A stretch of 64,000 bases of DNA, counting the filler, from Circinaria calcarea (Eukaryota): the NCBI GenBank assembly GCA_051942165.1. It is 15 parts of 15 records of this genome, joined end to end, with 100 filler letters (N's around TTAATTAATTAA, not from the genome) between each part and the next. Parts side by side here need not be neighbours in the genome. Positions count along the whole stretch, not along the records: positions 59,845 to 64,000 come from JAVECS010002436.1; 14 more parts are not named here. The stretch is one strand, 5' to 3'. A model generated the notes under the pieces. The model was not told the DNA's origin, searched no databases, and saw only the letters and a list, made by a program, of their open reading frames with translations. Position 1 is the first letter of the stretch. Every line of letters begins with the position of its first letter. A program made the translations under genes and the position numbers. Below, in pieces: positions 12,854 through 64,000 of the stretch.

Positions 12854-15800
12854 GGAGGAGGCGCTGCAACCGGACAAGACGAATGAACAGGATTTTGAGG
12901 TTGCGAATAACCCGTTTGCCTTCTCTCCTGGCCAATTGAACAAACTCCTCAATCCAAAGTCGTTAGCAGCATACAAAGCCCTCGGGGGGATCAAGGGATT
13001 GGAGCGGGGTTTAAGAACTGACATTGTTGCCGGCTTAAGTGTCGACGAGACTTCGTTGGAAGGGAGAATCACCTTTGGAGAGGCCACCAATCTTACCGAA
13101 AAAAATGACATTTACAGAGGACAGTTGCCACGAGAAGTTGAAGCAGTCCCACCCACCGACAGTGCTTCGCAGTACAGCGATAGGAAAAGAGTCTACAAAG
13201 ATAACCGTTTGCCACCAAAGAAATCCCTGAGCATATGGAAGCTGTTTTGGAACGCCTATAACGATCGAATACTGATAATACTTACAATTGCTGCTGGGAT
13301 ATCGCTAGTCCTTGGAATTTACGAGGCTGTCGGTCGGCCGCGAGAGCCAGATGAACCCCAGGGTGTTGACTGGGTTGAAGGTCTTGCAATCCTAATTGCC
13401 ATAGTTATAGTAGTACTTGTTACTGGCATAAACGACTACAGAAGAGAAAAGCAATTCGTGGCACTGAATGCAAAGAAGGACGATCGACAAGTCAAAGCCA
13501 TCCGTTCCGGGAAAACCGTCTTTATCTCCGTGTACGATGTTACTGTGGGTGATGTTCTTCACCTAGAAAGTGGCGACGCAGTTCCGGTAGACGGCATTCT
13601 TATCAGCGGTTACGGTATTCGATGTGACGAATCTTCGGCTACGGGAGAATCAGATTCAAAGAAGAAAACTTCTGGTGATGAGGTTTGGAGTCATATTCAA
13701 GCAGAAACGGCAACCTCAAAACTCGACCCATTCATCATCTCGGGGAGCAAAGTCTTGGAAGGTGTTGGTACTTACCTGGTCACCTCCGTTGGTGTCAACA
13801 GCAGTTTCGGAAAGATTTTGATGTCCCTCCATGCTGAGAACGAAGACACCCCTTTACAAGTGAAACTGGCCAGGTTAGCCAACTGGATCGGTTACGGTGG
13901 TACGGGGGCTGCTGGACTGCTTTTCATTGTCCTTCTTATTCGTTTTCTAGCTGGATTACCAGAGAATCATGGTTCTGCCGCGGAGCGAGGGTCCGAATTT
14001 CTTGATATTCTCATCGTGGCCATCACCATTATCGTTGTTGCTGTCCCTGAAGGTCTTCCGGTGGCGGTCACCCTTGCACTCTCGTTCGCTACCAAAAAAT
14101 TGTTCCGCGAAAATAATCTCGTCAGACACCTCCGTGCCTGCGAGACGATGGGCAATGCGACCACTATATGTTCTGATAAGACTGGTACCCTCACACAGAA
14201 TAAAATGACCGTGGTCGCTGGGAGCCTTGGTACGGACGTTAATTTTGCTCGCGATATTGCTCTCGATCTCAGTGACGAGGAGGTGAAAGTACAGACTTTC
14301 CATGCCGCTTTTGGAAACCTATCCTCTTCTGTCAAAGATCTTCTAGTGCAATCCATCGCAATCAACTCGACGGCGTTCGAGGGCGAAGAGGACGGGAAGT
14401 CCGCCTTTATAGGTTCAAAGACCGAGACCGCCCTCCTTGCTCTCGCCAGAGAGTATTTTGGCATGGGACCACTCGCAGAGGCGCGTACGGCTACAAAGAT
14501 TGTGCAGTTCATTCCATTCGACTCCAATCGCAAATGCTCTGGGGTTGTCATCCACCTCGCATCTGGCAGCTATCGACTACTAGTAAAGGGCGCTGCGGAA
14601 ATCATGCTTGCCAATGCAACGAAAGAGCTCGTTAATGTTTCGGACCAAAGTTTAGAAATTGATGTTCTAACGCAGTCCGCGAGAAGCAAAGCTTCCAGGA
14701 ATATCACAGACTACGCTGAAAAATCCTTGAGGACAATTGGCATGCTCTATCGGGACTTTCAACAATGGCCACCCGCAGGCTCTCGCACTTTGGAAGACGA
14801 CAAGCATATGGCTGTTTTTGAAGATGTTTTTGAGGATATGATCCTGCTCGGAATCGTTGGCCTGCAGGATCCTTTGAGAGACGGTGTTCCCCTTGCCGTC
14901 AAGCGCTGCCAAGACGCCGGTATTGTAGTAAGAATGGTAACAGGTGACTCCGCTACTACTGCCACCGCGATTGCTACTCAATGTGGAATCAAGACGGCGG
15001 ATGGTATCGTGATGGAAGGGCCAAAGTTTCGAGTACTCTCTGACGAGGATCTGGATGAGGTCTTACCGAAGTTACAAGTTCTTGCACGCTCTTCACCGGA
15101 AGATAAATCCATTCTCGTTAACAGACTCAAGTACCTTGGCCAAATAGTGGCTGTCACCGGCGACGGAACTAATGACGCCCCCGCACTCAAAGCCGCCGAC
15201 ATTGGCTTTTCCATGGGCATTGCGGGTACAGAGGTTGCTAAAGAGGCATCCGATGTCATATTGCTCGACGACAATTTCTCAAGCATTATCAGCTCGATCA
15301 TGTGGGGTCGAAGTGTCAACGATGCCGTCGCTAAATTCCTTCAGTTCCAACTCACTGTCAACGTTACAGCAGTGTTCTTGGCCTTTATTTCGGCTGTTTC
15401 TTCGGCTGATTCTCAGTCTGTCCTGACTGCGGTCCAGCTCCTCTGGGTGAATTTGATCATGGACACCTTTGCCGCTCTAGCTCTCGCCACTGATGCTCCG
15501 ACGGAGAAAATCTTGGATCGCAAACCTACACCTCGAAGCGACCCTTTGATTACTACAACTATGTGGAAGATGATTTTTGGTCAAAGTGTGTACCAACTTA
15601 CTGTCACTTTCGTTCTTTATTTTGCTGGAGCTTCCATTCTTGGCTACGACACCATTACAGATCCGAAACTTATGGAACTGCGGGATAAACAGCTTGATAC
15701 TATTGTATTCAACACGTTCGTCTGGATGCAGATATTTAACCAGTATAACAACCGCCGTTTGGATAACAAGTTCAACATTTTCGAGGGAATACATCGGAAT

Positions 15801-16271
15801 TATTTTTTCATGGTTCTCAACGTTATAATGGTTGGCGGCCAGGTCATGATTATCTTCTTTGGTGGGGAGGCATTCCAGGTCGAAAGGATCGATGCTCCAC
15901 AGTGGGCTATTTGCATTTTGTGCGCACTGCCGTGTATGCTATGGGCAGTGGTGTTGAGATGCATACCAGACGAGTGGGCGGCGGCCGTCTTTGGTGCTGT
16001 TGGAAAGATATTCTTCGGGATATACAGACCAGTCGCCCGGCTGATGTCTTTGATATGCCGGCCAATAGGGAAGGGTTGGAGATCTTTCTCCAAGTTGATA
16101 ATTGCCCCAATGAAAAGAGGATTGAGGCGTGCCTTTTCGAAAATGTCTGGACGGAAAGACACGGAGTCCACCAAACCCTGCGATGAAGAGGCAATAGCCC
16201 TCTCACAAACACCAACACCCGTCTCTCCCGTGAGGAACTTACCACCCATTACGCTTACTACAGCCACTTAA
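12854..16271 (+). CDS. PMC1: P-type IIB Ca2+-ATPase (Pmc1/PMCA-like), 5'-truncated
   Basis: DESSATGES, VAVPEGLP, ICSDKTGTLT, KGAAE, MVTGD, TGDGTNDAPALK, LLWVNLIMDT. Confidence 0.95.
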
Positions 16272-38398: not shown

Positions 38399-38498
38399 NN
38401 NNNNNNNNNNNNNNNNNNNNNNNNNNNNNNNNNNNNNNNNNNTTAATTAATTAANNNNNNNNNNNNNNNNNNNNNNNNNNNNNNNNNNNNNNNNNNNN

Positions 38499-39925
38499 TG
38501 CTCAAGAGTCTGGTTCTTGATCGCAGCCTCGAGGTCGGCGATTTCTTCTCTTTGGCGTAGGAGATCTGCTTGCTGTTCAAGGACATCTTCGTCGACCTCG
38601 TCAGAAGCGTTGGCATCTGAGCCGGAGGATTCGTCATCGCTGTCTTCTTTCGCCGAAGTAGCGGCTGGAGGAGTCGGGGCTTCGGTATCGGTGAAGTTGG
38701 ATGTTTCGACAATGGTGGGAGCGTTATCAATCACCGGGGTTGACGCAGCCTCGTCAGCGTCGCCCTCCATCATTGCCATCATCAAGTCCGCCTCCAAGCC
38801 ATCATCCTCGACTTCTGCGCCAATAAGATAACCGGTATTCTCGTCCACCTCTCCATCAGCATTCCGGTCACCGTATTCGCTTTCACCTTGCATGCCTGCG
38901 TTGCCTAACATGTCGAACCCTTCCGCGCTTTCCTCCCTCCTGCTCTGCTCTTTGCTCAGTCTGTCCAGATCTATGACCTCGACTCGACTATCTCCCTCAC
39001 ACTCTTCATCAAGTCTGAGTAATCTCTCCACCTCCTCCTCCACAGCCTCAATCGTCCGATTGCTTACTCTCTTACGGAAGCGCCTTTTCCTAACCCATCG
39101 CATTGGCGGTGTCAACCCGTGTGCATACTGCCACGTCGCCTTATCAAGCTCCCGTCCTGGCAAGGGGTAGTCTAATGCATCGTCTTCCTTCGTCACCTGT
39201 CCCAACACAAGTAGCATCTGGCAGATATCCGCACTCTTCCACCACCCTCTCCGATCCCAACTTTTCATTCCTTCAATCACACACGGCAGATCCACCAGAC
39301 AAGCTGCGTAGTGCCTTCCTCTGATAGTTACCACTGCTCGCCGACCATCACGCCCCAAAAATTTCATTCTTACGTCCGCCCCGCCTTCACTCCTTGGACC
39401 CCACCTTTTCTCTTCGACCGCTTTACGTAGGTAGTCGCAATCCTCGCCGGGAGCCATGCGTAATATAAACTCCTCCTCAATGGCTGGGTCTACTTCTCGA
39501 TCAGAGGCTTCGCTATCGTAACCCACCCCCAAGGGTCTATGAGGCGGTTTTCCCTTCGCTTTCATGCGAATGAAGGGTGTTGTCGGAGCACGAGCATTGA
39601 GCTTAATCTTCTTAATTCCCGCGGATGGTACGGGCGCGGAAAGTGGTATGGGATCGTCATCTTCGCTGTGGGCCGCAAAGTCACGCTTTTTGGAAGTTGG
39701 TGTCGAGAGTCTGGGGGGTCGTTCTTTTTTGGGCTTTCGCGGGGCTTTTGCAGGTTTGGCTATAACATCGGGCTGAGGAAGAACGGGAGCTGTAGCTGTC
39801 TTGGGGGTTCCAGAGCCAAATTTGAGTGTCAATTTTGGTGTACTGGTTGAGGGTGTTGCAACTGGTTGAGAGGCGGCATGTCCAGTGGTAGAAAGCTTGA
39901 GCTTGAGGGTTGGTCGTTGTGACAT
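38499..39925 (-). CDS. TAF7: TFIID subunit Taf7 (TAFII55 N domain), 3'-truncated
   Basis: IEEEFILRM, ACLVDLPCVIEGMKSWD..KSADICQML, HGLTPPMRWVRKRRFRKR, IEAVEEEVERLL. Confidence 0.93.
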
Positions 39926-40268
39926 GATGAAGTGAGAGTATATGTTTAATACTATGGTATTTAGTCGCCTTCAAGTGCGATAGAAGGACGTAGTCTACTG
40001 CATCAAGGTGTGATATTGCAAGAATGGGGAAGTAGACTCCTCCGTAGGAAAGGAAAGCGAGGGGAACACCTCGCCAAGTCATTATAGATTATGGGCTCAG
40101 CCCGGATTTTCGCCGAGGGTATCATTATCTATTTTGGATTCAGATTCACCTGAACGCTACATTAGAACAATAGCTATGGGCTGATCTCTCTTATTCATCG
40201 ATCAACCGAACATGGTGCAAGCTAACCTAGAGAACGCATCAAGCAATCTTAAACCCTAAACGCATACA

Positions 40269-52656: not shown

Positions 52657-55476
<2,820 letters not shown>

Positions 55477-56318: not shown

Positions 56319-58753
56319 TCAATGATCATAGCCGGCGCCCCTCTGCCATGGACCTGCGTTGTTTTGCGGCCGGTATGCACCAGTTGACTGAGGAGTTGCT
56401 GTCCGATTATAGGGTTGGTAATCGTACCGTGGAGCTGGAGAACTGTTGTTTGTGGATCTCGAATTGAACACGGTACTGTCATTGTACTGCCCATCACCAC
56501 CGTATACCCCAGAATGATTATCAGAGTACTGAGCAGGAGTACCGTGGCGAGGCGTGCCATCTCCAGGCATGAAAGGAATGTTTGCATCAATCGGCGAACG
56601 AGAACGATCATGTAGGTTTATCTCCCTTGTTGAATGTGATGTAGATGATGGAAGAGGCACGCCTCCAACCTCATGCTGTTTACGCCCAAGAGAACCGGAG
56701 GAGAAGGAATCATCGTCGTCATCAAGATCTCGGTTTTTGTAAGGCATTTTCATGTCTCCCCGAGCTGTTACGCCAAGTGCATCGAGCTCAGTGTTCAGCT
56801 GAGATTGCGACTTGATAAAAGAGCCGCGATCGTCTCGCATGGGTTGATAGCGGGTATCAGGATTCTTTGAGACAATTGCCAAGATCGACGACACAAGGAC
56901 CATGATCAATAGTATAAGGGCGAAGAAAGCATTGTAGACGAAGAATATCACTCCCATGACTCCGGTTACAATTCCCTGAAGACTTGTCAGTAACAGCTTT
57001 ATATGGCGGCCGGGTATCTCTTACAGGTTGGCTGAAGACGTTAGTAAAGACTAGGAGGAAGATGCCGTTGAGAAAATTGACGACGGCAATGGCGATGTTG
57101 AAGACGTTGGTCTTTTTGTCCATCCAGGGCCGAAGAATGCTCACCGCGATTAGTGCAATGGCTTCAATGATGACGAGTGCAATACCCTGGACCGTCGGCG
57201 CATTCTGAGCGAAGGCGATGAAAACTGCTTTGATGACAATGTATACCATGGTGGGCAAAATGAAGTAATACGCTGTGGCGCGAAATTGGACGTAGAGGAA
57301 GCCCCATTTGTTCAGAGCTTTGGGATCGGAGTATAGGATGTATGCTGGGTTCTTGTGCATATTGACAGATCGTTTTGCAATCCGAATGACTTTCATAGCA
57401 GCCCATAATAAGGCAACAGTCATGGCGATGAAGTAAAAAAGCGCGAGTACAATCTCTGCTGCCGAATCCCTTCGAGTCAACTCCCACAGGCAGAGTATGC
57501 ATATCTGCGGGTAGCCTATAAGTACCTGATGCCTGTTAGCACTAGCAAGGCATGTTCGACGCTCGTAATCGACTTACCAGACGGAACAAAATACCCTTCA
57601 ACACGATTTTCCAACCATTACGAAAATCTTGAAACTTATCCCCTTTGAGCCAGCCTGCTTTGACGGCCAGCTCGCAGAAACCCTTGAAAAGAGCTACGCA
57701 AATGGCAACTATAACCACGAAGGCTATGAAAAACGACAATCCCGTTAAGAAAATGTTCGTAGTTTCAATATTGGCACGGAATCCCACGCGCTTGATTCCT
57801 CTCAGAATGGTCACCGTAGTGGAAGCAGAACTGGGAGTGGTCGGGCTATTCTGTCTCTTGATAATTGCATGGTAGGTGTTCATAACCAGTTTCTCAGCTG
57901 TTCTAAGGGACCTCTTTTGCACTTGCACGGACGTGGTTGCTAGGTTGGAAAGAATGGTTGACGGAGTACCTCCAGTAGATCGCTGGTACCAAGTGAGGAC
58001 ATTCTGCATGAACCCAATTCTGACCATGCCCATGGTCCATTGGAAATTCTGAGTCCACGATTGTACAATTGGCGGAAGGTTGACAGCGGTCATACCGATG
58101 ATAGCCTGTGTTTGGAAAAACCCGAAAAGCGACAAAGCATTGGCTGCGATGTGAGCTGCCGTGTTGGAGTGTCCAAGCCCGGAAGTCACCGCGGAAGCAA
58201 GCAAACCAAGACCAGCTATCACGGCGGTTGTCCACTGCACAGCTTCCTGATCAACGGTCTTGCCGTTCGATAGTTCTGCTTCGACGCAAGCGAGCTGCTT
58301 GCCTGTGGTCGCATCTGTGATCAAGATCTTCACCAGTCCGTCGAGATCTGGGACACTAAAGGCAACGCCAGGGATTTGACTGACAACATCCGGGGAGAAC
58401 TGCGAGTTGGAATTGATGACAATTTGACCAGGATTCATAGGGCAAAGGGAGCTCAGCTCCGCGTTACCACAAGGATTTATGGTTTGGTTGAAAGCAGTGT
58501 AACCATAGGCGATGGCTTGTATATTGGCAATAATATTCCCTCTGATGGTTGAGACGCCATTAATATTGTATGTGAGCGTGCCGTTGTCGGGTGTGAATAC
58601 AACATCGAACAATGTCGCCGTGAACCCCGAATTATCTTGACAAGCATTCAGCGAATTCGATTCGATTAGCCGCGCAGCTGTTGCCAGCGTGGAGAGGATA
58701 AGGATGATGGCGGAGCGAAGAGGGAGTGAGTCGACCGTTGATAGTAGTCGCAT
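56319..58753 (-). CDS. FLC/Pkd2 TRP-like membrane protein (ML-like TRP_N + TM domain); exons ~58753-57578, 57525-57025, 56975-56319
   Basis: Signal peptide, AFSVPDLDG, ACVEAELSNGKTV, PPIVQSWTQNFQW, KWGFLYVQFRA, RPWMDKKTN, PDTRYQPMRDDRGSFIKS. Confidence 0.92.
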
Positions 58754-59879
58754 CTTCGTCACCGCTCATGAAAGACTGGAAGCTTATGTAGTCGCCTTCA
58801 CCGAACTGACTGGCGGAAATGACAGATCGTATGGAGCAATGCGACTTGTTCGACTCGTGCCTCTCCTACTAATGCACACTTTCTCCAGAACGATGATTCG
58901 GTTTCATGCAATGCAGCCGACGCAGTCCGAGAAGTGTGAATGAGGATGTAGAGAATGGTGATCGCTCGGCCAATGAGGCAAATCAAGGAAATCAAGTGAG
59001 CGACAACCCCAAGTTAGGGTACTTTTAGTGCATTGACAGGTAGTAGTACTTCTTTGTAGCTGTGCGACGAGCGAGAGGCGGCAAGATTTGGTCTTGAGCG
59101 TCGTAACAATAGATGGAATGAAACAGCGATAGTGGTGGAGAGAGAGAGAGGTTGGATGGCGAGAGTTGTGATGGTGGTGATGTTGTGGGAGATGACAGAC
59201 AATTTCCTCCGTATTCGAACGAGTGGTCAGGGGAGACCATCCATACCATAGCGGAAAGGGTATTACTTTCTACCGAAAATGGCGTGGGGTCAGCCGCGCA
59301 CGCCGCGTAATGCTCCGGACTCTAAATTCATATGATGATTTGTGTACATTCTTGATTTCGTCCCGGACTGCCGGTACTGCTTACCCTTAAAGCCGTTGAC
59401 AACGGTATTGGCTGTAATGCAGAGACACATCGTGGATCCTGTTACATGCGGTAGAAGGTATCACTCCTACTTCCAAAAGCACGCCCTTGAAGAAAAATTG
59501 CCACCTTGTAGTCCAATCAGAATCGCTTTCCTATGAGAGTCCAAGAAGCATAGCCCCCAGCTGAGAGTTTAGTCGGCTGGGCGACATTTCACATGGATAA
59601 TCAACTCGGCCCTTGGCCCAGTCCATTCCGGCACTCGACATTCCATTTCTTTTGATGCCTTGTTAAGGGTGCGGTTCTCAGCATTGGGAGTCAAAGCGGT
59701 CTTTGAATTGGCTCAACGATGCAGGAACCCGCTGTGCGTACTAGNNNNNNNNNNNNNNNNNNNNNNNNNNNNNNNNNNNNNNNNNNNNTTAATTAATTAA
59801 NNNNNNNNNNNNNNNNNNNNNNNNNNNNNNNNNNNNNNNNNNNNCCTGGTGAGTGTAACTAGCACGACTCCTGGTGTCG

Positions 59880-60125
59880 CGGCGACTCGATACGCTGCCA
59901 GAGGGCAAAACGAGCAACACGGCAACCTACTACGTGTCCAAGGAGGACGAATAGGCACACGGCAACTGACTACGTGTTACGAGAAAACGAATCAGCATAC
60001 GGGCCCTGACTACGTGTCCGAGGAGGACGAATCAGCAATACGGCAGCTTGCTACGAGTTAAAGGAGACGAACAAGCACATCTACACACCGGCAGCTTACT
60101 ACGAGTCCAGGAGGACGAATAAGCA
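59880..60125 (+). repeat. Six ~40-nt tandem units, each a predicted stem/internal-loop/stem-loop RNA element
   Basis: Units start 59880, 59920, 59960, 60000, 60041, 60089, all with CGG; stems differ between units but remain complementary. Confidence 0.85.
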
Positions 60126-60337
60126 GATCAGTAATCGCAGAGTGCGTTTACCACGTTGGCCGGCAGGCGCGCGGCAACAACACATTCACCATTTTCCTTC
60201 ACTTCATCAACAACCTCACTTCACCTTATTCCTTGTAATACTTTCAACTTACACGTTGACTGGCAACCAACACATCAGCAAATTGCCACATACACTACAT
60301 TTCTTACCCGTGGAACCATTACATAACCGCATTCAAT

Positions 60338-63300
60338 ATGAGTACCGACGACGGCTTCGGCAGACGACGCCCAGTCCCTATCCTCTCACGCGAAAACTCC
60401 GAGAAATGGTTCCCTCTCTTCGAGCAATGGCTCATCGGTGAAGACATCCACATTGCCTTAACAGCACCAACAATTCAGCTGAATTCTCCTACTGCTGCCA
60501 CCACTCCTACCACCGGTATCAACACTCCATCTAGCGAGGCAACTACAACGCAGAGTGTAACTCTGTCTAATACCGCGGATGATGCAGCATACAGGAAGGC
60601 CGATGCAAAGGTTCAATACTGGCTTGCTATCTGCATTAGCGAAGATGACCAGGAATGGGTCACTGATAAGCTAACAGCCAGAGCAAAGTGGAGTGCTCTC
60701 AAGTCCAAATATGAAGAAAAGCTGCAGACCACCGGAAGGCAATACCTCCAAGACTTTGTCAGCTACAAGATGGAGGCCGGTGTCACTATCGACGATGCGT
60801 GGACATACCTCGGCAAACTCGGCAGGAAGGTCGCCGCAACACAGAAAGATATGGCAGGCCTAGCAAAACCCGAACGACGTTTCCAACAATTGCTGCAAGC
60901 TCTTCCTGACGAATACACTGTCATTCGTGACGCTATTGATGCCCAAGATAACCCGAACATCGAAAGAGGAATTCGAAAGCTGCAAGAGAAAGAGGCTCAA
61001 TTGCAAGCTGACACTGCACTTTGGGCAGGTCAGCGTAAAAGCCAACAAGTAAAGAGCAAGGGCAATGACTACAGTCACGGCAAGCGCTCTTCAAGCAATG
61101 AACACGAACGCCCACCTTTCCGCGGACAAGAACGCAAGCTAAATAAATGCTACCTATGCGGCGAAGAACACCGAATCAGCCAATGCCCTCACCTTCCTGC
61201 CGCCCGCAAGCTTATCAAAGGCAAAGGAAAGAAAAGCAAGAAGGAATCGCCCGCATCGCCCGACATTGACGCCCTCATCAAGCTTCTACAGCAAAAGCAG
61301 CGGAAGAAGCACCGAGCATACAACGTGGAAGATGACTCAGAGGAGGACCCAGAAAGCTCTGACTCAGGCCTCGATCTTGACCCCGAAGATGAAGAAATCA
61401 GCGAAGAAATCGCCGCTTTATCTAAGGACGTCACCCGTAAGATCCCTATGTCTAAATGGGTTGCAGACTCCGGCGCCTCATCTCACATGACTGACCAACT
61501 CCGACTCTTTAGTGGCCCTCTAACTTGCATCAGAAGGCGCACAATTAAGGTCGGAGGGGGGAGATTATATGCCGACCACTGTGGCACAGTCATCATGCGT
61601 GATAAGGATGGGAACTCCATACGTCTTTCCGATGTGCTGTATGTGGACAAGCTCGGCGTGAATCTTCTTTCTGGAAAGCGCATGTGCGAGAAAGGACTTC
61701 GGGGGAGTTTCGACCAGGATGGCCTCTACATGCATGATCGATTTGGCAAGCTGGTTGTCAAGGCCACTGAGCGCGGTGGGGTCTATGTAGTCGATAGGAT
61801 TACAAGTGGATACGACAGCTTCGCGCTGTATTCAAGCACTCAATGTGACCCCAATATTGCCTTCCCAGCAGAAGCAGTAGATGTCATTATGGAAGATAGT
61901 GACGAGATCATTGCAAACCAAGTCGACTGCAGTCAACCTATTAAGCAGAAAGAGATTGACAACTACCAGCTATGGCATCGCCGGTTCGCCCATCTTGGCC
62001 CAGAGAAGATCCGGAACCTACATAAAGTCACCACGTTGGAAAAGCCGATTACAATTGCCACACCTGACCACCATATCTGCGAAGTATGTGCACTCACCAA
62101 GCTCAGGAACAAACGAGCGCACCAAGTCAGTGAAAGGAAGAACGCAATCCTGGCATTAATCTCTATTGATGTATGCGGCCAATTACCTCTATCACACGAA
62201 GGCTATGCCTACTTCCTCGAGATTATAGACAACTACTCGCGCAAGATATGGACCATTCCGCTAAAGCGACGCGAAGACGCACCGAAGGCACTGCGTGAAT
62301 GGCGAGTGAAGACAGAACTTCAAAGTGGAGCAAAGGTAATGGCAGTACGCAGCGATAACGCTACTGAGCTCAAGGCTACCCTGGATGAATGGTGTGCATC
62401 CTTCGGCATCACGCCACAATACACCGTTCCTCATATGTCCATCCAGAATGGCGTAGCAGAAAGGGCAATTCAGACCACTGAAAACTCGGTACGGGCAATG
62501 ATAAAAGATGCCGAACTTCCGATTGAATTCTGGGTGGAAGCGGCAGAGACTGACGCTTACCTGCGAAACCGAACCTCTACTGGCCCAGTCGTTGACGGCA
62601 AGCCAACAAGCCCCGAAGAAGCCTTCACCGGAGAAAAGCCTTCCATCGACCATGTACGCGTGTGGGGCTGCAAGTGCTATTCATATGTTGATGTCAAATC
62701 TCTTCCTGCAAACGGCAGACGAGACAAGTTCATGGATAGAGGAAGAGTGGGAGTCTTCATGGGTTATGTGGATGAAACGGCAAAACGATACCGCCTATGG
62801 GCACCCGATCTAGGGCGAGTAATCACCAGCCACGTTGTGAAATTCAGCGAGAATGAAAAAGGGGGGAGCATAGAGCTCAAGCTACGAAAGCCAGCTACTC
62901 CGAACGTGCTACCGGAGCGTAAGCCTGTTGGAAGACCACGCAAGAATCCAGCACCAACGTCAGCGCCAACAGCATTACTCAGAGCACCCAAGGCAGCTGC
63001 TTCCGCCACGCCAGACACCCCCAAAAGTGATACTCAAAACGCCCAAATGGAATCGGAACAGGCAATGCAGGATAATGCGGAAGTGGAACTCCCAGGTCCA
63101 GACCTGGAAGTTCAAACTGTCCCGAATACCGAAGGCTCAAAGCCTATTGGAATGGTCAAACGATTCCTACACATTGAAATTCCAAAACGCCGTAAAAGAG
63201 AACTCCCGGGCCCAGACCTGGAAGTTCTGGCCCCCTCAATTCCTCCTGCTCCAGAACCAACTTCGCCAGTCAAGAAACCCTCGGATCTGAATCAAGAAAA

Positions 63301-64000
63301 GCCAGCGCCTTCATCTCCTAAAGCCGACAAGAACCCAACAGCCAGACGTTTTCTTCATGTGGAGATCCCGAAGCGCCATATGAAAGAACTCCCAGGTCCA
63401 GACCCGGAAGTTCCAATAATACCAGCCATTAAGGTTTCGGAGCCAAAGGGAATGGTTAAACGCTTCCTGCATGTCGAGATTCCAAAGCGCCGCAGAATAG
63501 AATTCGTCCCAAGCACATCAACCCCGGAACCAGCGTCAGCAAACACAAAGGCGGTGACTACAATCGCGGAGGATCCTCCTCCTAATATGCCACATCCCAT
63601 CGCTGATGTTCCACCCAAACGCCAAAGAGAGGACGATTACGACCCTGCCAAAGACCAGCATATCGCCAAGAGGCTCTGCGCCATGCTTGCATTAATGGCA
63701 GGTGAAGAAGAGGTTGACTGCAGTCAACCTAAAGGTGTCGAAATCCATACCCCCACCAGCTACGCAGAAGCAGTGGGAGATCCTGTTTGGGGAGAGCTAT
63801 GGAAAGAAGCAATAAACGCCGAACTCACTGCGTTAGCATCGAATGGAACATGGGAAGAAGTTGTACCACCTAAAGGCGCCAACATTGTCACAAGCAAGTG
63901 GGTACTCAAGCCTAAACTGCACATAGATGGCAAGCTTGATAAGCTGAAGGCAAGAGTTGTGGCAAGAGGCTTCTCTCAGATGCATGGTATCGATTATGAA
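60338..64000 (+). CDS. Copia gag-pol polyprotein, 1221 codons with no stop up to window end (absent from the ORF track)
   Basis: Manual translation: zinc knuckle CYLCGEEHRISQC (61148-61186), protease WVADSGASSHM, IN LWHRRFAH..CEVC, IDVCG/RSDNATE/QNGVAER, RT start WKEAINAEL..NGTW..KWV..KARVVARGFSQMHGIDYE. Confidence 0.96.
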   Translation, partial: MSTDDGFGRRRPVPILSRENSEKWFPLFEQWLIGEDIHIALTAPTIQLNSPTAATTPTTGINTPSSEATTTQSVTLSNTADDAAYRKADAKVQYWLAICISEDDQEWVTDKLTARAKWSALKSKYEEKLQTTGRQYLQDFVSYKMEAGVTIDDAWTYLGKLGRKVAATQKDMAGLAKPERRFQQLLQALPDEYTVIRDAIDAQDNPNIERGIRKLQEKEAQLQADTALWAGQRKSQQVKSKGNDYSHGKRSSSNEHERPPFRGQERKLNKCYLCGEEHRISQCPHLPAARKLIKGKGKKSKKESPASPDIDALIKLLQQKQRKKHRAYNVEDDSEEDPESSDSGLDLDPEDEEISEEIAALSKDVTRKIPMSKWVADSGASSHMTDQLRLFSGPLTCIRRRTIKVGGGRLYADHCGTVIMRDKDGNSIRLSDVLYVDKLGVNLLSGKRMCEKGLRGSFDQDGLYMHDRFGKLVVKATERGGVYVVDRITSGYDSFALYSSTQCDPNIAFPAEAVDVIMEDSDEIIANQVDCSQPIKQKEIDNYQLWHRRFAHLGPEKIRNLHKVTTLEKPITIATPDHHICEVCALTKLRNKRAHQVSERKNAILALISIDVCGQLPLSHEGYAYFLEIIDNYSRKIWTIPLKRREDAPKALREWRVKTELQSGAKVMAVRSDNATELKATLDEWCASFGITPQYTVPHMSIQNGVAERAIQTTENSVRAMIKDAELPIEFWVEAAETDAYLRNRTSTGPVVDGKPTSPEEAFTGEKPSIDHVRVWGCKCYSYVDVKSLPANGRRDKFMDRGRVGVFMGYVDETAKRYRLWAPDLGRVITSHVVKFSENEKGGSIELKLRKPATPNVLPERKPVGRPRKNPAPTSAPTALLRAPKAAASATPDTPKSDTQNAQMESEQAMQDNAEVELPGPDLEVQTVPNTEGSKPIGMVKRFLHIEIPKRRKRELPGPDLEVLAPSIPPAPEPTSPVKKPSDLNQEKPAPSSPKADKNPTARRFLHVEIPKRHMKELPGPDPEVPIIPAIKVSEPKGMVKRFLHVEIPKRRRIEFVPSTSTPEPASANTKAVTTIAEDPPPNMPHPIADVPPKRQREDDYDPAKDQHIAKRLCAMLALMAGEEEVDCSQPKGVEIHTPTSYAEAVGDPVWGELWKEAINAELTALASNGTWEEVVPPKGANIVTSKWVLKPKLHIDGKLDKLKARVVARGFSQMHGIDYE

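Follow-up and report, generated by a model that had tools for sequence, protein, structure and literature searches.

What keeps the two arms of a short hairpin complementary through six tandem copies while the sequence of those arms changes from copy to copy, and what might such an array be doing a short way ahead of a gag gene? Both questions were raised by positions 59880-60125 of a 64,000-nucleotide (nt) stretch of DNA from Circinaria calcarea (assembly GCA_051942165.1), referred to here as the window, where an original prediction had placed six covarying hairpins in the leader of a Copia retrotransposon. To the first question there is a firm answer in part, in that the stems have kept their pairing far beyond anything that the independent drift of their two sides would produce. 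The answer to the second is more tentative: the array may be an RNA, acting from the sense strand, to which several copies of the Gag protein of the element bind in the manner of a packaging signal, and several other readings have to be weighed beside it.

Six hairpins whose stems covary

The six units follow a common plan, in which an outer stem of 4 base pairs (bp), a 6 x 3 internal loop and an inner stem of 3-4 bp are capped by an apical loop of purines. The outer stems are Watson-Crick paired in 24 of 24 cells and have five different sequences, CTGA/TCAG being the one that occurs twice. The inner stems have 4 bp in U1, U2, U4 and U6, and 3 bp topped by an A.A apposition in U3 and U5, with a single U:G pair, in U5. 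Thirteen columns of the six-unit alignment are invariant, namely the CGG with which each unit starts, the closing C:G pair, the TACG in the long strand of the internal loop, the AA in its short strand, and the CA that follows the stem; 11 of the 13 are unpaired, and just one of the eight pairs never varies. Purines make up 27 of the 28 bases of the apical loops, which have AGGA or GAGGA cores. In all of this the original prediction was accurate: the six units lie where it had put them, with the stems it had given them, and the five distinct Watson-Crick outer stems, the lone G:U, the invariant TACG and AA, the CGG and CA at either end and the purine-rich apical loops had each been described. 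Tandem Repeats Finder reported a period of 40 with only 4.1 copies (59917-60079), versus the six units recognised by structure, and a BLAST search of the leader against the 64-kb window returned the internal similarity of the array and nothing else.

The covariation was assessed on a structural alignment of the six units, which holds 48 stem cells (eight pairs in six units). Pairing is kept in 46 of them, the two exceptions being the A.A appositions that end the inner stems of U3 and U5 on the apical side, and six of the eight pairs have changed on both sides. None of 500 column shuffles equalled the real alignment in pairing, in doubly changed pairs or in covariation score, and in a control in which the structure was slid, by moving the 3' partners 1-3 columns, pairing was 20.8-47.9%. 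Because the units are paralogues with a common history, a tree-aware simulation was added, in which the 3' columns took the observed 10-11 changes without regard to the 5' columns. It was run 20,000 times on each of three unit trees, and no run gave 44 of 48, the best on each tree giving 41-43. The pairing pattern is therefore real and not the drift of independent sites, and it points to stems under constraint. This upheld the claim that outer and inner stems covary. The companion claim, that neutral drift would not preserve the pairing, stood as far as independent drift is concerned, but template switching can mimic compensation (PMC8794818) and is taken up again below. A hairpin that is recognised through its loops typically has stems that vary with compensation around unchanging loops, and the sequences of these six units conform to that pattern. 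A covariance model built from them, one of the checks that had been proposed, recovered all six with 38-57 bits; over the 64-kb window it found nothing beyond the six, the next score being 10.1 bits (expectation value, E, 1.3).

Table 1. Parts of the leader, in window coordinates. Unit structures read outer stem / loop / inner stem (apical loop) inner stem / loop / outer stem; scores are those of the covariance model.
Feature	Position	Strand	Structure or content	Score (bits)
Contig start, pre-array stretch	59845..59879	+	35 nt; direct repeat CCTGGTG at 59845-59851 and 59870-59876	
U1	59880-59919	+	CTCG / ATACGC / TGCC (AGAG) GGCA / AAA / CGAG; most diverged unit	47.4
U2	59920-59959	+	CCTA / CTACGT / GTCC (AAGGA) GGAC / GAA / TAGG	54.9
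U3	59960-59999	+	CTGA / CTACGT / GTT(A) (CGAGA) (A)AAC / GAA / TCAG	38.2
U4	60000-60040	+	CTGA / CTACGT / GTCC (GAGGA) GGAC / GAA / TCAG	51.4
U5	60041-60088	+	CTTG / CTACGA / GTT(A) (AAGG) (A)GAC / GAA / CAAG; then a long CA-rich linker	52.3
U6	60089-60125	+	CTTA / CTACGA / GTCC (AGGA) GGAC / GAA / TAAG	57.1
Rest of leader	60126..60337	+	GC-rich hairpin region, then C/A/T-rich stretch to the gag ATG	

The original prediction had not recognised the array as a described family, and neither did the Rfam 15 covariance models, which gave 0 matches up to E = 10 against 59846-60400 on both strands, with permissive filters. A 19-base unit motif had no match in viral contigs, six isolated single matches in metagenome contigs, which were GC-rich, looked like bacterial coding sequence and had no array around them, and eight single matches in bacterial genomes and metagenome-assembled genomes, none of them in an array; isolated as they were, the 14 matches were set aside as chance, and as the motif demanded the GTCC/GGAC inner stem, diverged arrays would escape it. 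A literature search turned up no report of covarying hairpins arrayed in the leader of a retrotransposon, a statement that rests on that search. There are precedents for tandem repeats in the leaders of LTR retrotransposons and for packaging signals made of hairpins; a six-fold covarying array of two-stem hairpins that joins the two is, as far as these searches show, new.

Two known loop motifs were tried for the internal loop and rejected. A likeness of UA...GAA to the sarcin-ricin (loop E) consensus failed on a C where the bulged G is expected and on extra bases. The original prediction had found the G.A-rich loop reminiscent of kink-turns, and the two are indeed alike in having an asymmetric internal loop between two helices with G and A on the short strand. 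The likeness did not survive the defining rule of the kink-turn, a 3-nt bulge followed by tandem G:A/A:G pairs (PMC8191799). At the level of sequence, the long strand (CUACGU or CUACGA) reads C-U-A then C-G in the six units, with no G-A after a 3-nt bulge, and on the short strand (GAA) the G-A (A-A in U1) is parted from the outer helix by one more A.

The leader, its Copia element and their relatives

The array ends 212 nt before the gag ATG, close to the predicted distance of about 210 nt. From this ATG, at 60338 on the + strand, a gag-pol reading frame extends without a stop over 1221 codons to 64000, where the window cuts it off. Pfam recognised Retrotran_gag_2 at residues 70-225, Pol_BBD at 374-453, gag_pre-integrs at 533-588, rve at 607-699, SH3_retrovirus at 764-841 and RVT_2 from 1169. 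Judged by this domain order (gag, protease, integrase, reverse transcriptase), in a test for which RNase H and the long terminal repeats (LTRs) fall outside the window, the element is a Ty1/Copia LTR retrotransposon (Pseudoviridae), as had been predicted, and from the length of its open frame the copy looks young or active. Its Gag carries a C-X2-C-X3-H-X4-C (CCHC-like) knuckle flanked by basic residues. Further along, at 63086-63416 between the integrase and the reverse transcriptase, coding direct repeats (a 31-nt core three times, a 71-nt unit twice) encode a thrice-repeated motif, RFLH.EIPKR...ELPGPD.EV, in a proline-rich linker.

The leader itself (59846-60337) has 492 nt and not a single ATG, versus 6.5 expected (P about 0.0025 by mononucleotide shuffles), a composition that fits a long, scanned 5' untranslated region (UTR) on the plus strand. 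Putative primer-binding sites (PBS) of the TGGTG... type start at 59847 and 59872, within the short direct repeat at the contig start; the more distant of the relatives described below differs at 59847, in the first of these candidates, and has one base fewer at 59878, in the second. A search of the 64-kb window for transfer RNA genes with which to compare the PBS found none. Folding of the first 40-74 nt gave nothing above shuffles, and a 10-nt complementarity between 59847-59856 and 60182-60191 was rejected as being at chance level (by our own estimate about 4-5 such pairs are expected in 555 nt). Just 3' of the array, at 60155-60181, lies a GC-rich hairpin region in which the hexamers GCCGGC and GCGCGC are each self-complementary; the region could be a dimerisation site, but its predicted fold is only slightly better than that of shuffles (z -1.16).

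Relatives of the leader were sought in public sequencing runs, in which it was only partly present: 20 of the 22 listed runs held some of it, and the best share was 0.21, in biocrust metatranscriptomes. Four runs (X1, X2, X4 and X8) were compared, only stretches at least 80% alike being aligned, and the parts left uncovered are not evidence of absence. A close variant was found in X1, X2 and X4, three runs from two studies, covering 59846-60086 with 15 differences in 241 nt (6.2%), of which five were placed. Two of the five fall together in U3, where 59978 T>C and 59986 A>G turn a T:A pair into C:G, a compensatory change, and a third in the same unit, 59979 A>T, makes a new pair with A59985; the remaining two, in U2, exchange one purine for another in the apical loop (59943 G>A) and alter the linker (59958 C>T). 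None of the five listed differences disrupts a pair.

The more distant relative, in X8, is a 1832-nt contig from a poly(A) RNA library that begins 10 nt before 59848 and extends across the array region and past 61200, within gag. Three indels are listed for its aligned array parts; they are at 59878, 60038 and 60084, upstream of U1 or in linkers, one of them being an ACA inserted in the U5 linker behind 60084, and the stretch corresponding to 59927-59993 (U2-U3), although too diverged to align at 80%, is of equal length. Directly after U6, in comparison with 60126-60167, the contig has 91 letters where the window has 40; the longer stretch is possibly an extra unit, that is, a variation in the copy number of the array. 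Together with the ATG-free leader, this poly(A)-library contig indicates, only indirectly, that the array is transcribed.

In the X2 copy of the close variant, divergence was 6.2% in the array (15/241), 12.6% in the next piece, which holds leader and the start of gag (46/365), and 16.0% in gag (65/405), and in X8 the aligned array pieces diverged by 5.1% and 8.3% versus 16.8% for gag. The lower divergence of the array is a weak hint of constraint, weak because only stretches at least 80% alike were aligned and because the contigs may join different copies. At the protein level Gag had 11 relatives, the best, encoded on a 10.6-kb contig, with 80% identity and the rest with 37-51%, and a Gag-based search for the locus found no relative in viral contigs or genome contigs.

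What might read the array

The reading that we favour, as a tentative candidate, is that the array is a multivalent Gag-binding RNA of the packaging type. It would be a cis-acting element of the Copia genomic RNA, on the sense strand, in which each 40-nt unit folds as a small two-stem hairpin. The stems would be scaffolds only, since they vary with compensation, and recognition would fall on three surfaces: the invariant internal-loop bases, with UACG facing AA, the apical loop of purines, and the linker CA...CGG, which is conserved and single-stranded. Repeated six times, the module would present a multivalent platform for protein, the reader would be the element's own Gag, by way of its basic CCHC-like knuckle region, and the outcome would be a psi-like signal for packaging or Gag recruitment adjoining the priming region. 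Four steps of this reading are inferred: the folding of RNA and not of single-stranded DNA, the binding of a protein, the identity of that protein as Gag, and packaging as the result. The position may be that of a psi-like signal, as the array lies upstream of gag in an ATG-free leader and is present in the RNA-library contigs of relatives. On the predicted structure the hairpins do offer unpaired purines. The listed indels of X8, which spare the hairpins, and the listed changes of the close variant, which keep the pairs, are likewise consistent with it.

The nearest functional precedent is retroviral. In mouse mammary tumour virus (MMTV), Gag binds to single-stranded purine loops containing GGAG, which are determinants of packaging; PMC8096270 also cites similar motifs for human immunodeficiency virus 1 and human T-lymphotropic virus 1. 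The array is like these packaging hairpins (for MMTV, the SL4 purines plus the PBS) in its place in the 5' leader, near the priming region and upstream of or at gag, and in its small stems that present unpaired purines with GGA/GAG cores; their reader is a zinc-knuckle Gag. It is unlike them in consisting of six near-identical tandem modules that carry a second conserved feature, the asymmetric UACG/AA internal loop, in the want of a palindromic dimerisation loop in the module, and in belonging to a fungal Copia and not to a retrovirus. In Ty1 of yeast the 5' cis region lies largely inside gag and contains a pseudoknot with kissing loops. Ty1 belongs to the same superfamily as the present element and also concentrates translation start, packaging, dimerisation and priming at the 5' end of its RNA (TIPIRT domain; PMC4974528, PMC5454406, PMC6844567), the cis sequences required for retrotransposition being within the first 380 nt (PMC4974528); the excerpts of the Ty1 literature that were covered describe no tandem covarying hairpin array.

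Several points weigh against a Gag-docking RNA. The hairpins are predicted to be weak, the designated structures of U1 to U6 having -6.6, -5.5, +0.7, -6.2, -0.5 and -4.2 kcal/mol (the U1 value is also the minimum free energy), so that, if they matter, a bound protein or non-canonical pairs in the loops would be needed to hold them. Just one of the six units beats its shuffles (U6, z -2.09), and the fold of the whole leader is no better than shuffles (z +1.07), which is likewise the case on the other strand. Pair probabilities in the full leader, sense strand, are 0.18-0.52 for the outer stems and 0.00-0.96 for the inner ones, the inner stem of U4 reaching 0.95-0.96. The antisense units, at -7.3 to -10.8 kcal/mol versus -3.9 to -8.7 for the sense units, are predicted to be as stable or more so, owing to G:U pairs that close their internal loops; for this reason folding cannot choose between the strands, and the sense strand is favoured only by the U:G of U5 and by the transcript context. 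The original claim of a sense-strand module thus keeps the support of the ATG-free leader and of that U:G pair but gains none from folding.

The protein and the transcript raise further objections. The spacing of the Gag knuckle is non-canonical, and zf-CCHC is not among the six Pfam families found at E <= 0.001. The contig begins at 59845, 35 nt ahead of U1, and shows no LTR, so that neither a PBS nor a transcription start can be assigned. Contigs from RNA libraries prove neither strand, nor ends, nor transcription. Template switching, lastly, could have yielded part of the compensatory pattern (PMC8794818).

The same RNA array might instead be read by an RNA-binding protein of the host, or act on the ribosome, with translation, stability, nuclear export or localisation as the process affected. 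We consider this unlikely, even though all of the evidence for a selected RNA structure on the sense strand fits it equally and ribosomes scanning the ATG-free 5' UTR would have to pass over the array. Repeated elements with conserved internal loops do serve as retroviral export elements, for example the constitutive transport element of Mason-Pfizer monkey virus. However, the hairpins (+0.7 to -6.6 kcal/mol) are far too weak to block scanning alone, no known motif was matched in the Rfam search, and the visible part of the element has no sign of splicing, so a special export signal would be unneeded.

It is quite unlikely, in our judgement, that the array has no selected function and is a hairpin-prone minisatellite, the arms of which were kept complementary by template switching within a strand, either as DNA was replicated or as RNA was reverse-transcribed. 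Such switching is frequent in reverse transcriptases. The process is reported to create perfect stems (PMC8794818) and to repair the pairing of existing ones, multibase compensatory changes included, and its products resemble the units here in being short stems of which both sides change together. The small thermodynamic signal of the hairpins would agree with such an origin, as would the folding of both strands, expected of an inverted repeat at the DNA level, and tandem repeats are common in the 5' UTRs of LTR retrotransposons, being present in 39% of those of Drosophila (19 of 49 families; PMC8872304). Template switching, however, accounts for mutational origin and not for function, and it predicts neither the invariant unpaired bases, which a mutational mechanism leaves unexplained, nor the asymmetric loop kept in six units. 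At least 10 changes per arm have been matched across the six units, yet the 6 x 3 and apical loops were never made complementary, which counts against this mechanism because unselective copying of arms should sometimes have done so. The lower divergence of the array in X2 is a weak hint in the same direction, and the intact reading frame implies recent rounds of selection for transposition, to which the leader too was exposed. As for the multibase copying of one arm, changes are found on both arms, and the U3 variant is altered on both, single events being untraceable without ancestral reconstruction.

That the array acts as double-stranded DNA, offering tandem protein-binding sites (an enhancer, insulator or silencer) within a transcribed leader as in gypsy and ZAM, seems very unlikely to us. 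The CGG at the start of each unit would suit such a role, as CGG is the half-site typical of fungal zinc-cluster factors. Position and tandem layout also agree: in gypsy, 12 Su(Hw) sites arrayed over 340 bp of the 5' UTR make up the insulator (PMC2374998), the 5' UTR of ZAM has the same tandem layout, insulator activity and an HP1 binding site (PMC8872304), and in these elements, as in Tirant and accord, short tandem units with a conserved core and variable spacers lie between the 5' LTR and gag as protein-binding platforms, to which the six leader units here, with a given size of 40-48 nt, are comparable. The Drosophila arrays are read as duplex DNA through a contiguous consensus, stem covariation not being reported in the passages covered, whereas the invariant bases here are split by covarying stems into scattered blocks of 1 to 4 (CGG, C, TACG, AA, G, CA), which do not look like one contiguous site, two short half-sites being possible. 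The stems changed on both sides are left unexplained, because a DNA-binding protein reads sequence and not complementarity, and an ACGT core is broken in three of the six units.

A role for the hairpins in single-stranded complementary DNA or antisense RNA, whether in pausing or guiding reverse transcription or strand transfer or as structure in an antisense transcript, is highly improbable: the predicted stability of the antisense units, the minus-strand pair probabilities of 0.64-1.0 for the outer stems of U3, U4 and U6, and the position of the array 35 nt from the contig start, where a PBS is expected, are in its favour, but in the minus strand U5 has a C.A mismatch in place of its U:G and the outer stems of U1, U2 and U5 have only 0.0-0.09 (in the sense ensemble all six outer stems have a share), the purine-only loops and the ATG-free leader are features of the sense strand, and the literature search on retrotransposon leader structures gave no precedent, nor do we know of one.

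The window, and what a Gag-docking array would mean

The window consists of 15 contigs of about 4.2-4.3 kb each, in descending size, joined by spacers of N44 + TTAATTAATTAA + N44 (e.g., 59745-59844), and since the spacers join separate contigs, segments that stand side by side in it need not adjoin in the genome. The array-bearing contig has its first base at 59845 and continues beyond the end of the window. Other contigs carry fungus-like eukaryotic host genes: a fusion of AA_kinase (acetylglutamate kinase), NAT and semialdehyde dehydrogenase, which is typical of fungi, at 53161-55476 (-), a TRP/TRP_N-like channel with an ML-like domain at 57545-58765 (-), TAFII55 at 38450-39970 (-) and a P-type cation ATPase at 12855-16268 (+). 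The contig that precedes the array has a period-15 tandem repeat of 1.9 copies at 59146-59174, unrelated to the array.

How Ty1/Copia elements select their RNA is little understood except in Ty1 of yeast, in which the signal is spread over a diffuse 5' region. It may even be, although we regard this wider proposal as doubtful, that Copia-type elements outside yeast choose their genomic RNA by a modular, repeat-expandable packaging code, made up of tandem minimal two-stem hairpins, each a single dock for Gag with its purine apical loop and UACG/AA internal loop, the copy number of which would set the avidity. On that view the array would be the first psi element to be defined by sequence in a fungal Copia, and retroelement RNA selection would have gained a new architecture. 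A hairpin module that is short, repeated and bounded is a candidate that can be tested directly, its loops and stems dictating the mutants to be made (loop mutants versus compensatory stem mutants), and a natural six-fold array for docking protein is a possible tool for tagging or recruitment in fungi. Should template switching prove to be the explanation instead, the array would be a compact natural case of that process acting repeatedly on paralogous units. A Gag-docking array, for its part, would show that the tandem repeats in the leaders of LTR retrotransposons are not always regulatory sites at the level of DNA.

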